Source: a virus
Taxonomy: Duplodnaviria; Heunggongvirae; Uroviricota; Caudoviricetes
Virus record (IMG/VR): IMGVR_UViG_2541047945_000012
Reading direction: 5' to 3' (one strand)
Length of the DNA: 7,139 nucleotides
In this document: one piece after another, positions 1,111 through 7,139 of the stretch
Layout of the letters: every line of letters starts with the position of its first letter
How positions within the stretch are numbered: position 1 is the first letter of the stretch
Notes under the pieces: model-generated
The model's database searches: none
What the model saw: only the letters and a program-made list of their open reading frames with translations
What the model was told of the DNA's origin: nothing
Made by a program: the position numbers and the translations under genes

Positions 1111-1142
1111 AAAAACCCTCTGTAGTAACAGAGGGTTTTGTT
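1111..1142. terminator. Bidirectional rho-independent terminator
   Basis: Perfect 8-bp stem CCCTCTGT (1116-1123) / ACAGAGGG (1128-1135) with 4-nt loop AGTA, flanked by A5 (1111-1115) and T4 plus GTT (1136-1142). It lies 40 bp after the yfgI-like stop and between the convergent gene sets. Confidence 0.75.
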
Positions 1143-1163: not shown

Positions 1164-1181
1164 TCATTCCCACTCAATTAT
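1164..1181 (-). other. guaA: Orphan 3'-terminal codons of guaA (GMP synthase), I-I-E-W-E-stop; candidate displaced att-side fragment
   Basis: Minus-strand codons ATA ATT GAG TGG GAA TGA (1181..1164), preceded in frame by TAA (1184..1182). GMP synthases end in ...TIEWE (recalled, not searched). Position and convergent orientation relative to the yfgI-like gene match recalled E. coli K-12 synteny. Only 4-5 codons long, so the call is weak taken alone. Confidence 0.4.
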
Positions 1182-1207
1182 TTACGACAATCATAACTAA
1201 TTGAGTG
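1171..1207. repeat. Perfect 10-bp inverted repeat CACTCAATTA / TAATTGAGTG with 17-bp spacer, overlapping the guaA terminal codons
   Basis: 1171-1180 cactcaatta and 1198-1207 taattgagtg are exact reverse complements. Located at the inferred host/prophage boundary. Confidence 0.6.
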
Positions 1208-1288
1208 ATAACATTTTTCCAAAACTTCATTTTTCTAGTACCGTTTTATATACCGTCACCGGAAATCAGTACCATGAAAAATGCCATG

Positions 1289-1771
1289 CTATCTGGTCAG
1301 GGTGTCGTATTGTTTTTCGCAGACTCTTCCGGCTTCGGCTGCCCGGTCAGCATACTCTGCCAGTTGTCTGTTTCTCTCGAGAGATTTGCTGAGCACGTCG
1401 GCAAGCAAAACTCCGGTGTCTGCGGCTGACGTCCCAGCGCCGACAATGGCGTTATACTGCCTGAGCTGCTCACGGATGGCAAAGAGTTGTTGCTGCAACC
1501 GGCCAGCGCGAGCGGCAGCATCAAGAGCATCATTGCGCGCCTGGTCGATCCTCTGCTGCGCTTCACGTTCATTGATCGATTTCTCCTGTTCGTAGTGCTG
1601 ACGAACTATCTCATCTTCAGCTTTGCGGTCTTCCTTCGCCTGCGCATACCCGGCATCGTACTGACGACTGCCGTGTGCATTCCAGGCTACAACTCCTGAT
1701 ATGACCAGAACAGCAAGCATCGCCATGATAACCAACTGTTTCCAGTATGCTTTTGCGAATGCCCAGATCAT
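1289..1771 (-). CDS. Rz-like i-spanin (inner-membrane spanin subunit)
   Basis: ATG at 1771..1769 overlaps the endolysin stop (ATGA, 1768-1771); SD AGGTG 8 nt upstream; TAG at 1291..1289; 160 aa. N-terminal TM ([21 protein letters not shown]) followed by a charged, Gln/Arg/Glu/Ala-rich predicted coiled coil and a C-terminal Cys. Classic position after the endolysin. Confidence 0.85.
1297..1572 (-). CDS. Rz1-like o-spanin (outer-membrane lipoprotein), fully embedded in the +1 frame of Rz
   Basis: ATG at 1572..1570 with SD AGGAGA 9 nt upstream; 91 aa. Signal peptide [26 protein letters not shown] with lipobox LAGC. Mature part about 65 aa, Pro-rich (8 Pro) with two Cys. Stops 8 nt before the Rz stop. 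Confidence 0.8.
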   Translation of the reverse strand: MNVKRSRGSTRRAMMLLMLPLALAGCSNNSLPSVSSSGSITPLSALGRQPQTPEFCLPTCSANLSRETDNWQSMLTGQPKPEESAKNNTTP

Positions 1772-3086: not shown

Positions 3087-3143
3087 GTTTTCCACCGTTT
3101 ATATGCATAACTACCTCCTGAACAGTAAAGCATTACGCATGAT

Positions 3144-3159
3144 AAACCATTTATGGTTT
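3144..3159. promoter_or_regulatory. Perfect 16-bp palindrome AAACCAT-TT-ATGGTTT just downstream of the putative promoter (candidate operator or 5'-UTR hairpin)
   Basis: 7-bp arms are exact reverse complements with a 2-bp centre. Starts about 12 bp downstream of the -10 hexamer, so it overlaps the predicted transcription start region of the lysis operon. Confidence 0.45.
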
Positions 3160-3170
3160 TTTGTTACCCA

Positions 3171-3199
3171 ATATTACCAATCCAATTCGCGATGGTCAA
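3171..3199 (-). promoter_or_regulatory. Candidate sigma70 promoter for the lysis operon: TTGACC - 17 nt - TAATAT, with TGn extended -10
   Basis: On the minus strand, -35 TTGACC (3199..3194), 17-nt spacer, -10 TAATAT (3176..3171) preceded by TGG. AT-rich upstream. Predicted start near 3164, about 78 nt upstream of the holin ATG. Confidence 0.45.
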
Positions 3200-3451
3200 A
3201 ACATATCCACAGCGGTAAGTTTGAGTGTTTTCATTTCCAAAACTTTATACAATAATATATGCAGTCTGTTATTTTTACGCACAATAAAAACACGATACCA
3301 GCTATTTCGCCATAAATACAATTTCCTTTAATGCTGCCAACAGTGCCTGCAAAACATATAACAGAACACATAAATAACAGGCATAATATAGATTTAATAA
3401 TCCAAGTGCATATAAATATCATTTAAGAAGTTAAGATCATTATTATAATAA

Positions 3452-3483
3452 CAATAACCCCGCTGTTTTATTCGGGGTTATTG
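3452..3483. terminator. Hairpin terminator downstream of the tail fibre gene
   Basis: Stem AACCCCG (3456-3462) / CGGGGTT (3473-3479), extendable to 11 bp, with a 10-nt loop. On the minus strand it is followed by a U-rich tract (TTATTATAATA). It begins 10 bp after the tail fibre stop (3493-3495). Confidence 0.5.
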
Positions 3484-3492
3484 CATTTATTA

Positions 3493-4029
3493 TTACATTG
3501 ACATTAATATAAACATGGCTAATTCGTCATAACGAATTCCGTAGCGTCCTCCTGCTTTTTTTACAAGAATCATATCTCCTGTTTTATATTGAGAATAAAT
3601 TTTCTCACCTGTATCAGGATCTGTGCTCTCTTCAGTTATCACCTCTTCATCCCATACGTCAGGCCATTCATCGTAACACCAAAAAGCATATTGCTCAGGG
3701 TTTAAACCATGCTTTCTAAGAATATCCCCTACGGTTTGAGCGCCAACGCCAAAATGATACCTGGACGACTCAATTCCTTTGTGATTAATTGAGTCATTAA
3801 ATTTAAATTTATAGATGACTGACTTTATTTCAATAGCGGCATCACGCTCTGCATTAAGAATATCATATCTTGTTTTAAGAGTTTCATCTGACGTATTGAT
3901 TGACCCGGTTCCTGCATAGATAACAGAGCATCTGTTTGATGGCTGTCCAATAGCTTTAACATTATCATCAACAGGAGCTATTTTATTAGCATCTGCCAAC
4001 CACCAGTCTGTTCCATCAGCGTGACCGAT
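3493..4029 (-). pseudogene. Tail fibre/tailspike gene, C-terminal fragment (distal to the IS2 insertion) including an intramolecular-chaperone-like domain
   Basis: In frame with fragment 5361-6914 once IS2 and one copy of the 5-bp duplication are removed. TAA at 3495..3493. Encodes ...GHADGTDWWLADANKIAPVDD...SINTSDETLKTRYDIL...GGRYGIRYDELAMFILMSM. The first 9 codons of ORF-track entry 3493..4056 are IS2-derived. Confidence 0.8.
4025..4029. repeat. IS2 target-site duplication, copy 1 (CCGAT)
   Basis: ccgat immediately flanks the IS2 end at 4030; identical to 5361-5365. Confidence 0.85.
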
Positions 4030-4040
4030 TGGATTTGCCC

Positions 4041-4946
4041 CTATATTTCCAGACATCTGTTATCACTTAACCCATTACAAGCCCGCTGCCGCAGATATTC
4101 CCGTGGCGAGCGATAACCCAGCGCACTATGCGGATGCCATTCGTTATAATGCTCGAACGCCTCTGCAAGGTTCTTTGCTGCCGTTAACCCGTCTGGTTTG
4201 GGCATGATACTGATGTAGTCACGCTTTATCGTTTTCACGAAGCTCTCTGCTATTCCGTTACTCTCCGGACTCCGCACCGCCGTGTTCTTCGGTTCAAGTC
4301 CCAACATCCGGGCGAACTGGCGTGTTTCATTAGCCCGGTAGCATGAACCATTATCCGTCAGCCACTCCACTGGAGACGACGGAAGATCGTTGCCGAAGCG
4401 GCGTTCCACCGCTCCCAGCATGACGTCCTGTACTGTTTCACTGTTGAAGCCGCCGGTAGTGACCGCCCAGTGCAGTGCCTCACGATCACAGCAGTCCAGC
4501 GCGAACGTGACACGCAGTCTCTCTCCGTTATCACAGCAGAACTCGAACCCGTCAGAGCACCATCGCTGATTGCTTTCTTTCACGGCCACTCTGCCTGTAT
4601 GTGCCCGTTTCGATGGCGGTACAGCAGGTTTTCGCTCAAGCAACAGCGCATTCTGGCGCATGATCCGGTAAACACGTTTGGCATTGATCGCAGGCATACC
4701 ATCAAGTTCTGCCTGTCTGCGAAGCAGCGCCCATACCCGACGATAACCATACGTTGGCAGCTCTCCGATAACATGGTGTATACGGAGAAGCACATCCGTA
4801 TCATCAGTGTGACGACTGCGGCGGCCATCCATCCAGTCATCGGTTCGTCTGAGAATGACGTGCAACTGCGCACGCGACACCCGGAGACAACGGCTGACTA
4901 AGCTTACTCCCCATCCCCGGGCAATAAGGGCGCGTGCGCTATCCAC
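4041..4946 (-). CDS. insD: IS2 transposase OrfB (InsD; DDE catalytic domain), normally made as an OrfAB fusion by -1 frameshift
   Basis: 301-aa [37 protein letters not shown]...[11 protein letters not shown], recognised as IS2 InsD. Overlaps insC in the -1 frame at the A6G site. Confidence 0.9.
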
Positions 4947-5269
4947 TTTTTTGCCCGTCCATATTCAACGGCTTCTTTGAGGAGTTCATTTTCCATCGTT
5001 TTCTTGCCGAGCAGGCGCTGGAGTTCTTTAATCTGCTTCATGGCGGCAGCAAGTTCAGAGGCAGGAACAACCTGTTCTCCGGCGGCGACAGCAGTAAGAC
5101 TTCCTTCCTGGTATTGCTTACGCCAGAGAAATAACTGGCTGGCTGCTACACCATGTTGCCGGGCAACGAGGGAGACCGTCATCCCCGGTTCAAAGCTCTG
5201 CTGAACAATTGCGATCTTTTCCTGTGTGGTACGCCGTCTGCGTTTCTCCGGCCCTAAGACATCAATCAT
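4904..5269 (-). CDS. insC: IS2 OrfA (InsC; helix-turn-helix DNA-binding/regulatory protein)
   Basis: ATG at 5269..5267 with SD GGAG 5 nt upstream; 121 aa [41 protein letters not shown]... The ORF-track start at 5314 is an upstream extension. Confidence 0.9.
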
Positions 5270-5360
5270 CTGTTCTCCAATGACTAGTCTAAAAACTAGT
5301 ATTAAGACTATCACTTATTTAAGTGATATTGGTTGTCTGGAGATTCAGGGGGCCAGTCTA

Positions 5361-5365
5361 CCGAT
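5361..5365. repeat. IS2 target-site duplication, copy 2 (CCGAT)
   Basis: ccgat immediately after the IS2 end at 5360; identical to 4025-4029. Confidence 0.85.
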
Positions 5366-6914
5366 TCTTACTCTTATCCCACTTCTAATATTTAAACTTC
5401 CAGTATTACTCTGTAAATTACAATCTCCTGAAGTTGGTCCAAGCAGTACAGTTTTACCAACACCACATACTACTCTGGCATTTCCTTTTTGTGATACGAG
5501 TCTTGACTCACCTCCTGACTGCTCAGGAAGAGATTTATGGTCTACAAATGCATCGCGGGGGTTAAATACACCGTCTCCAGAATTATATCTTCCTCCTGTA
5601 TAGTTGTTAAATACAGGACCCCAGTCAACGCCATTGCCTTCAGAGCACCCGACCATTCTAAGCACTCGAGTATTCCCTGCTGCATATGGTAATGAGCTTG
5701 TTGATTGCCTGGAAGCTATCATACGTGCTCCATAACCAATAGCATTACCACCATTTATAGTTACATATGCTGGCTGGCTTTCGAAATATGTACTGTAAAA
5801 GTTCATATTTCCACAGTCATGTAGATGAATAAGAACATCATCCCATCCCTGAATGGTTCCTGCATGTACCTGTACACCGCGAACTGGTTCCCCTGAAACC
5901 TCCATACACTCTGATGGCCGGCTGAATGGCTGAGACAGGTATTGCGATGTGGCAAGCAGATGTGTGTGGTGATACAGGCTGGTAATGTAGCAATCGAAAA
6001 ATTGCGTTCCCGCCATACCAAAGTTATCTATGTCATTTCGCCGTATAGTAGAACCTACTGTTGCCTCAGAAGCGTTAGACACTCCAGTAAATACTAACTT
6101 ATCACCGGATACGGATAATCCTGAATAAGTGAAATTCCTGCCTCCCGATCTTAAAACCCCGGACGTTTCGAAGGTGTGGCTTGATGACCATGGGATTTCG
6201 ATAGTGCTGGACGTTACCGCTGTAATTCGGAATACATCATGGGCGCGGATCGAAACACCCTTGAATCCCTGGAATCTACAGTGATAATAGTTTTCATCCT
6301 CGCCCTGAGCGGCCAGCGTGCCAGATACAGGAATGTTCGTTTTTAAAAGTGCCGTCTTGCGCCAGTATCCAACCACCTGCAAATTGCGGTATTCATTGCC
6401 AAAAGACGCACGTGACCAAATACCTACATCCCACTCATCGCCAAGACCGGTATTTGCAATGTCTTTATAACCATCCAGCCCATTGAAATATGGAACAATA
6501 CGAAAGTTCTCAAGGCGAACACATCCTGTCTCTGGCATCAATATTGCGGCAGAGAATGGTTTAAGCGTGGCTCTTGTAGCCCCATTAGCATCACCGTTAG
6601 TAAAATCCAATAAATCATATGATGACGCAGGTGCCGTTGTTGTATACGGGTCTTCGGAAGATGGATTAGAAACCACACCACCACTAACATCCATATTAGA
6701 AACACAATCTACAGTATATTTTTTATTTCCTACACCGTACATCAGGAATGTGGTCCCTGTGGTAATATCAGGAGCAAATGTTGCAGTATATCCAGAGACC
6801 CATTTGCCCACACCAAGACCAATTATCCCACCACCAGAAACAGGTGTTAACGTATCCGTTATTACATACGCATTATCAGTACCATAAATAACCTTTCCTG
6901 TGTTAATGGCAGCT
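5361..6914 (-). pseudogene. Tail fibre/tailspike gene, central fragment between the IS3-family element and IS2; 5' end missing
   Basis: Open frame of about 517 codons running from the IS3-family terminus (6915) to the IS2 terminus. Gly/Ser/Thr/Asn/Tyr-rich, as in receptor-binding fibre or spike bodies. No credible start codon or RBS inside the fragment, so the N-terminal part must lie beyond the IS element. Codons 1-61 of the 584-aa ORF-track entry are out-of-frame readthrough of the IS transposase. Confidence 0.7.
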
Positions 6915-7139
6915 TGAACCGCCCCGGGTTTCCTGGAGAGTATTTTATCTGTGAACTCAGGCTGCCAGATCATCGTTTCCGATGGAAGCATAATAAGCTT
7001 TTTCTGCTTCTGCCGGAGGAGTATGGCCCAGCCTTTCCAGCAATCGTCGATTGTTATACCAGTCCACCCACGTGAGTGTGGCCAGTTCCACTTCTGCACG
7101 GTTTTTCCAGCTCTTACGGTGTATTACCTCCGCTTTGTA
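6915..7139 (-). mobile_element. IS3-family insertion sequence (IS629/IS1203-like), partial; right end only, continuing beyond the window
   Basis: Terminal sequence on the plus strand from 6915: TGAACCGCCCCGGGTTTCCTGGAGAGTATTTTATCTGTGAACTCAGG, the TG...-type IS3-family end that I recall for IS629. It is followed by the transposase OrfB C-terminus. Exact IS identity not verified. Confidence 0.7.
6957..7139 (-). CDS. IS3-family transposase OrfB, C-terminal 60 codons (5'-truncated by window edge)
   Basis: Minus-strand translation ...YKAEVIHRKSWKNRAEVELATLTWVDWYNNRRLLERLGHTPPAEAEKAYYASIGNDDLAA-stop, with TGA at 6959..6957. This is a typical C-terminal tail of an IS3-family DDE transposase. Confidence 0.75.
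   Translation of the reverse strand, partial: YKAEVIHRKSWKNRAEVELATLTWVDWYNNRRLLERLGHTPPAEAEKAYYASIGNDDLAA

Follow-up and report, generated by a model that had tools for sequence, protein, structure and literature searches.

What is a perfect inverted repeat doing at the very place where host sequence gives way to prophage? The question arises from a 7,139-nucleotide stretch of DNA, hereafter the window, in which two 10-bp arms, CACTCAATTA and TAATTGAGTG, are reverse complements of one another at 10/10 positions across a 17-bp spacer, just as the initial annotation of this DNA had reported. A repeat finder lengthens the arms to 17 nt each, with 15/17 positions complementary (88%) around a 3-nt loop. 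The annotation left three readings side by side: binding arms of the core type for a recombinase, a hairpin acting as a second terminator of the lysis operon, and chance. Our analysis points elsewhere, to a repeat that is reasonably likely to be the by-product of two adjacent parts of the lysis-side arm of a Uetakevirus attachment site, namely the core with its C' half-site and, next to it, an IHF-type site.

1171-1180, plus strand: left arm of the repeat, consisting of 5 bp of the putative overlap and 5 bp of the putative C' half-site; extended arm, 1171-1187.
1198-1207, plus strand: right arm of the repeat, all of it phage DNA; extended arm, 1191-1207.

The anatomy of the junction emerges from a four-way comparison of the prophage-free site of strain H6, the attP sites of phiV10 and epsilon15, the junction in the window and the int-side junction of strain O15_8X. 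Phage identity starts at 1162 and host identity ends at 1178, and the 17 bp between these limits are common to attB, attP and both junctions. The same stretch is the reverse complement of the published attachment core attgagtgggaatgatt, which was shown experimentally for vB_EcoP_ZX5 and is cited there as proven for phiV10 and epsilon15 (PMC9782041). Nearly all complete E. coli genomes (5,412/5,426) match the host part of the window; 363 of them run on into the phage part, and in about 5,050 of the 5,412 the match stops at 1178, where guaA continues. The figure of 363 comes from a 401-bp query, a 101-bp megablast query having returned just 143 through its word size, which makes it the poorer count. 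The features that define the junction are the following.

1-516: yfgH, in the host part of the window.
532-1071: yfgI, in the host part of the window.
1103-1148, unstranded: bidirectional intrinsic terminator of the host between yfgI and guaA, an inverted repeat and the sole terminator call in 1000-1400.
1162-1178, unstranded: 17-bp common core, AATCATTCCCACTCAAT.
1164-1178, minus strand: 3' remnant of guaA, TCATTCCCACTCAAT, comprising the stop and the last four codons (I-E-W-E).
1289-1771, minus strand: Rz-like spanin gene (DUF2514), the last gene of the lysis cassette, whose 3' UTR crosses the repeat.

The guaA remnant is identical to the end of the annotated guaA of strain H6 and was left on the yfgI side by integration. 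An intact guaA stands at the other junction, where strain O15_8X carries int and then guaA, and in prophage-free strains yfgI is followed directly by guaA. The gene is intact despite integration, and the boundary of the prophage is fixed exactly, with its core at 1162-1178. The yfgI/guaA terminator is also found in the prophage-free strain H6, and in the prophage it now ends the lysis-operon transcript as well. An observation on the opposite side of attP bears on this arrangement: the int-side arm carries a terminator hairpin, AAAAACCCTCTGTAAAAACAGAGGGTT, which is 25/27 identical to the host terminator (window 1111-1139) and lies at ~2430-2457 in phiV10 (our sequence L002), at ~2430-2457 in epsilon15 (L001) and at 34275-34302 in a further contig (L004). 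Given this near-identical hairpin, guaA keeps a terminator ahead of int after integration and the lysis operon gains that of the host, and the likeness suggests that the phage arm was once copied from the region downstream of the host guaA.

On the phage side, the sequence from 1162 rightwards (to 3100) is 82-96% identical to the lysis-cassette end of YDC107_2, phiv142-3, vB_EcoP_ZX5, phiV10 and epsilon15, and the lysis-side arm is 90-96% identical to the E. coli members of the Uetakevirus phages. Pfam searches find the Rz-like DUF2514 protein, a GH19 endolysin and holins in the phage part. The core, a location beside yfgI, and phage DNA collinear with the phiV10/epsilon15 lysis cassette and attP arm are three hallmarks of the Uetakevirus guaA attachment site, and all are present. 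The window therefore contains, on the yfgI side, one of the two junctions of a Uetakevirus prophage of the epsilon15/phiV10 kind that is integrated where guaA ends.

The remainder of the prophage bears traces of damage. An IS2-like element (ORFs 4041-5314, minus strand), whose two ORFs encode 136 aa (HTH_Tnp_1) and 301 aa (rve), lies between a 584-aa ORF for the body of a tailspike (5345-7099, minus strand, no Pfam match) and a C-terminal tailspike fragment carrying End_tail_spike and Peptidase_S74 chaperone domains (3493-4056, minus strand). The tailspike gene thus appears to be split by the element, and for this reason the prophage is probably defective. The C-terminus of a second transposase-like protein (...LATLTWVDWYNNRRLLERLGHTPPAEAEKAYYASIGNDDLAA*), encoded at 6957-7139 on the minus strand, abuts the 5' end of the tailspike ORF, perhaps the trace of a second IS that cut the tailspike short at its N-terminus. 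Just downstream of the C-terminal fragment, on the minus strand, a 21-nt inverted repeat at 3442-3493 with a perfect 11-bp core (CAATAACCCCG / CGGGGTTATTG) looks like an intrinsic terminator. An AT-rich gap of ~400 bp (3096-3492), containing short ORFs only, separates the fragment from a membrane-protein/holin gene; this position is occupied by an O-acetyltransferase gene in phiV10 and by O-antigen polymerase and inhibitor genes in epsilon15, and a serotype-conversion module seems to be missing from the prophage of the window at this point.

Against this map the repeat can be placed precisely. It was said to straddle the inferred junction, and it does, with host identity stopping at 1178, inside the left arm. 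That arm had been equated with the terminal codons of guaA; it does contain the last codons of the gene, but 2 of its 10 bp are phage sequence, the other 8 bp belonging to host and core. The repeat is missing from attB, strain H6 being without the right arm, and the ~5,050 genomes that match only to 1178 agree with this, so that the repeat is no host feature, as it would have been if carried by prophage-free yfgI-guaA regions. It is also missing from the int-side junction (O15_8X), as is expected, because the right arm sits on one phage arm only.

Another of the original readings, chance, depends on the background chosen when a single sequence is considered. When the whole window is dinucleotide-shuffled, 17.8% of the shuffles contain a perfect 10-bp inverted repeat whose arms stand 3-40 bp apart (mean 0.23); when the shuffling is confined to the local 211 bp, the figure drops to 1.2%. 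The two remaining repeats of this kind in the window are terminator hairpins. What excludes chance is conservation across relatives. Viral contigs were pattern-scanned for the arm-type motif of the integrase, which yielded ~55 attP or junction sequences with varied host flanks, from which we infer hosts that include E. coli, Salmonella, Klebsiella-like bacteria and others. The motif and a likely partial copy of it lie to the right of the repeat.

1250-1259, unstranded: arm-type integrase site, ATACCGTCAC; the epsilon15 record has an 'integrase' binding site at the equivalent position.
1238-1247, unstranded: putative partial arm-type repeat, GTACCGTTTT, sharing TACCGT with the annotated site 12 bp downstream.

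The epsilon15 record repeats the 'integrase' site on its int-side arm, the same 10-mer stands on both attP arms of phiV10, and the partial motif is conserved in all relatives. The 17-bp spacing of the repeat is kept in 50/53 unique related sequences, which shows that the repeat is not a chance event. Its perfection is another matter. The repeat does recur in the attP of related phages, usually at 8-9/10: among the 53 unique relatives the right arm reads CAATTGACTG in 24 (8/10) and CAATTGAGTG in 18 (9/10), and epsilon15 has a complementarity of 7/10. The perfect 10/10 arm, TAATTGAGTG, is a rare variant found in this window and the identical contig L024 only, and it owes its perfection to a T at position 1198 in place of the usual C. 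One attP-like sequence (L011, IMGVR_UViG_3300007747_000006), with phage sequence on both sides of the core, has no equivalent of 1179-1228 and reads CCCACTCAAT directly joined to ATTTTTCTAGTACCG, so that it is without the entire repeat, the IHF-like site and the greater part of C'; the loss may have arisen in nature, by deletion between short AT-rich repeats, or in the assembly, as an artefact.

Column by column, the conservation follows boundaries other than those of the repeat. In 52 related sequences, columns 1168-1181 and 1184-1185 are invariant, 1168-1178 necessarily so, TCCCACTCAAT having been the criterion by which the sequences were chosen, and columns 1182-1183 are 98% conserved. The phage-derived TATTTAC at 1179-1185 is accordingly conserved at 98-100%. 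Columns 1186-1191 vary, columns 1192-1204 and 1206-1213 are conserved, and column 1205 is G or C in a roughly even split. Watson-Crick pairing between the arms holds in only 40% of the relatives at 1173:1205, 12% at 1180:1198 and 10% at 1181:1197. To judge from the aligned sequences, this is a pattern that fits protein sites and not a stem.

Which proteins, then, and where? The left arm had been proposed as one half of a core-type recombinase pair of which the right arm would be the other. A palindrome scan instead brings out a different pair, centred on the core itself.

1159-1168, unstranded: putative B-type core half-site of the host, TCAAATCATT; its attP equivalent is GT(A/T)AATCATT.
1169-1175, unstranded: putative 7-bp overlap (strand-exchange) region, CCCACTC.
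1176-1185, unstranded: putative C' core-type integrase half-site, AATTATTTAC, 8-9/10 symmetric with the int-side half-site.

In attP these elements, GT(A/T)AATCATT / CCCACTC / AATTATTTAC, form an inverted repeat with a 7-bp spacer that is 9/10 in epsilon15 and 8/10 in phiV10. Across the epsilon15 locus (6,952 bp) the core pair is the sole inverted repeat of at least 9/10 with a 7-bp spacer, and in phiV10 it is one of three of at least 8/10. The minimal identity between attP and host across all host flanks, CCCACTCAAT (1169-1178), still contains the CCCACTC spacer. We infer from these features that the true core pair has its overlap at 1169-1175 and its C' half-site at 1176-1185, and membership of this putative half-site would be the reason why TATTTAC is invariant. 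The pair resembles the C-O-C' repeats of tyrosine integrases, in which a 7-bp spacer within the attP/attB identity is bordered by imperfect inverted half-sites. The 10-bp repeat is unlike them, with a spacer of 17 bp in place of 6-8 bp and a centre, at 1189, that lies outside 1162-1178 and 11 bp beyond the 17-bp identity block; on both counts it is excluded as the crossover pair.

The left arm of the repeat is thereby accounted for as the right end of CCCACTC together with what would be the start of C'. For the right arm, a second type of site offers itself on the opposite strand, one that conforms to the IHF consensus WATCARnnnnTTR, in which an upstream A-tract also plays a role (bioRxiv 10.1101/382655).

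1194-1206, minus strand: 13-mer resembling the IHF consensus, ACTCAATTAGTTA, matching WATCAANNNNTTR with one mismatch (12/13).
1214-1218, minus strand: A5 tract, 7 nt upstream of the consensus and resembling the A-tract of lambda H'.

A lone match with one mismatch is not significant, given that the window holds 8 such matches against 8.05 expected and that matches with at most one mismatch have a background rate of 5e-4 per position, and the case for IHF therefore rests on positional conservation. All 55 main-family sequences (55/55) have exactly one mismatch in the register 1206->1194, and the consensus base affected is the A in second place in WATCAA. Six divergent relatives (L042, L070, L106, L168, L171, L189) share the arm-type site and have the core variant CCCACTCGAT; the sequence between their core and arm-type site is unalignable with that of the main family, and the repeat is reduced to 2-6/10. 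Five of the six nonetheless carry TATCAG-N4-TTR, a perfect 13/13 match to WATCARNNNNTTR, in the exact register of 1206->1194, and the remaining one has AATCAATTCACTA in the same register with one mismatch. The consensus is thus kept where the repeat is lost. More than 50 unrelated contigs, which have nothing but the 15-mer search pattern in common with these sequences, all show at least three mismatches at the IHF register. Within the A-tract, TTT at 1216-1218 is 98-100% conserved, the rest of the tract not strictly so.

The candidate consensus also sits where a bending site would be of use, between C' (1176-1185) and the arm-type sites (1238-1259), and the GenBank/RefSeq record of epsilon15 annotates a predicted IHF site on each arm of the repeat (L001 2508-2530, corresponding to window 1168-1190, and L001 2528-2550, corresponding to 1188-1210). 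We rejected an IHF-like match in the left arm (1172-1184, plus strand), because its footprint would cover the crossover and the divergent relatives no longer have it. The right arm is, on this comparative evidence, most likely a bending site like lambda H'. Points against this reading are the place of the main-family mismatch, an orientation opposite to that of lambda H' relative to the core, more complementarity between the arms than two consensus matches need, and L011, which has no such site. A literature search found no IHF study of phages of the epsilon15/phiV10 type, and some tyrosine integrases work without IHF (PMC7581858), which bears on the IHF dependence of the integrase considered here. 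The divergent branch deserves a remark of its own: its arm-type sites are identical to those of the main family and its host flanks end in ATCATT, which suggests that its target is a guaA whose Ile codon is ATC. It seems, then, that in other hosts too the end of guaA is a target of this integrase family.

Taken together, these elements suggest how the junction may work. IHF would bind the consensus half of its site on the minus strand (1206->1194), with the A-tract 7 nt upstream, and bend the DNA into a U-turn at ~1207-1212, by analogy with lambda attL (C'-H'-P'). Integrase held at 1238-1259 through its N-terminal arm-binding domain would in this way have its catalytic domain placed on C'. Strand exchange, with its cleavage positions, would then fall within CCCACTC, both in integration, at attP, and in excision, at the junction studied here. 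The window does not contain the integrase gene; in O15_8X, a prophage of this type carries int at its opposite end, and the phiV10 Int is heterobivalent, with an Arm-DNA-bind_3 domain, a central Phage_int_M domain and a catalytic Phage_integrase domain. In such a scheme, Int would contact C and C' alike, and the symmetry of the repeat is most likely incidental to two adjacent protein sites.

Several alternatives would grant the repeat more than this. The right arm could be a third, inverted core-type half-site within a degenerate inverted copy of the core, bound by Int and serving, for example, to stabilize or regulate the intasome. ATAAC(C/T)AATT (1193-1202) indeed matches the reverse complement of C' (GTAAATAATT) at 8/10 positions, a match equal to that of the int-side half-site C to C', and a site of this kind would explain complementarity beyond the IHF consensus positions, the arms being more complementary than two independent consensus matches require (at 1171:1207, 1172:1206, 1178:1200, 1179:1199 and 1186:1192). 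Such a half-site, however, would face outward from the crossover, with a poor partner and 'overlap' of its own (18/27 to the true core); by hand comparison, moreover, the C'-like copy is lost in L042 (5/10) and L070 (2/10), where the IHF consensus is kept. We regard this third half-site as unlikely.

Another proposal is that the repeat is a palindromic operator at the junction for a dimeric phage protein, be it an excisionase or directionality factor or another regulator. In 52 sequences, two conserved 12-bp half-sites, TCAATTATTTAC and (G/A)TAAC(C/T)AATTGA, lie at a fixed distance on either side of a 6-bp centre that varies, as an operator would have it. The left half, however, is fully accounted for by the guaA coding sequence and C', the palindrome is absent from six relatives with the same arm-type sites, and no candidate protein was identified; an operator is decidedly unlikely. 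The reverse position, that the complementarity has no function of its own and is either the relic of an old inverted duplication of the core or a coincidental likeness of AT-rich sites, draws on the perfect 10/10 being unique to the lineage of the window through a single C->T at 1198, and on the decay of complementarity in epsilon15 (7/10) and its disappearance in the divergent relatives. Strong constraint acts on each half separately, so that the sequence has a function even if its symmetry has none. A relic in this sense overlaps with our preferred explanation and is not opposed to it, and taken as an account in its own right it has a small chance of being correct.

A step further lies the proposal that, in the E. 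coli/Salmonella/Klebsiella branch, the palindrome TCAATTATTTAC-N6-(G/A)TAAC(C/T)AATTGA is a functional unit of its own, either an inverted pseudo-core bound by integrase or the operator of a dimeric directionality factor. If so, it would control the excision competence of the junction on top of an ordinary IHF site; we consider this very improbable.

A similarly poor prospect attaches to the suggestion that the repeat acts as a minus-strand RNA hairpin in the 3' UTR of the lysis operon, as a second terminator, a barrier to exonucleases or an RNase III site. Folding of the minus-strand RNA, which had been recommended as a check, does give a stable structure in the window (-16.9 to -20.1 kcal/mol, z -3 to -5), but not in epsilon15 (-5.5 kcal/mol, z -0.6, insignificant), and the divergent relatives that were folded (L042, L070, L106) have z > 0. 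At three stem positions the combinations that depart from Watson-Crick pairing are always C:A on the plus strand, and hence G.U in the minus-strand RNA, although compatibility at 3/3 positions has a chance expectation of 1 in 8. As evidence of structural covariation the case fails: the inner stem shows only these G.U-compatible transitions, the outer left arm is fixed by guaA and so cannot covary, and the central pair is broken in 60% of the relatives, 1173:1205 being C:C in 29/52.

The terminator version fares no better. The repeat is like a rho-independent terminator in forming a stem-loop beyond the final gene of an operon, and unlike one in its AT-rich stem, with 3 G-C among its 10 perfect pairs, and in its lack of a U-tract, the minus-strand sequence after the stem reading GGAAUGAUUUGACCC. 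A promoter and terminator scan of 1000-1400 calls the host terminator (1139->1112), 30 nt further on, and nothing else, with no promoter-like site in that interval; with the stem also broken in most relatives, a second lysis-operon terminator is rejected. An Rfam search of 1000-1400 at E <= 1 returned sub-threshold chance matches only, none near threshold. A DNA cruciform, finally, folds at -7.8 kcal/mol, yet its symmetry is not conserved, and it was discarded.

We return to the repeat as the sum of a core with its C' half-site and an IHF-type site, and to what this reading would mean. It would supply an attachment-site map, comprising the overlap, C and C', an H'-like site and arm-type sites, for a group of phages used in O157 typing and known for serotype conversion, and the map could help if the integrase of phiV10 or epsilon15 were developed as an integration tool. 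More generally, two protein sites that lie side by side can add up by accident to a striking, perfect palindrome at a junction.

The repeat is an ordinary element of the already-known guaA attachment site of the epsilon15/phiV10 type. Like the guaA sites of epsilon15, phiV10 and vB_EcoP_ZX5, the window has the identical 17-bp core, the same arm motif ATACCGTCAC and the gene order Rz, GH19 endolysin, holin; in contrast to them, it has a repeat that is perfect (10/10, not 8-9/10), a junction with host DNA and a prophage with IS insertions. The wider comparison is with lambda attL and its P' arm, where the same order is found on a similar scale: a 7-bp overlap, a core half-site, an IHF consensus with its A-tract and a cluster of arm-type sites. 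In lambda (NC_001416) the A-tract lies at +18..+23, the IHF consensus at +32..+44 and the arm sites from +53; in the window, with the overlap centre at 1172, the A-tract would lie at +42..+46, the consensus at +22..+34 on the opposite strand and the arm sites at +66..+88. The A6 tract of lambda H' stands 8 nt upstream of its consensus, and the A5 tract of the window 7 nt upstream. Unlike lambda, the window thus has its consensus on the opposite strand, its A-tract distal to the core and one mismatch to WATCAANNNNTTR; the arm concerned is the int-distal one, the integrase is P4-like and the IHF site is a prediction from sequence. The elements of the lambda arm would in this way recur at the end of guaA in the same order, with the bending site turned about between the core and the sites that hold the integrase.
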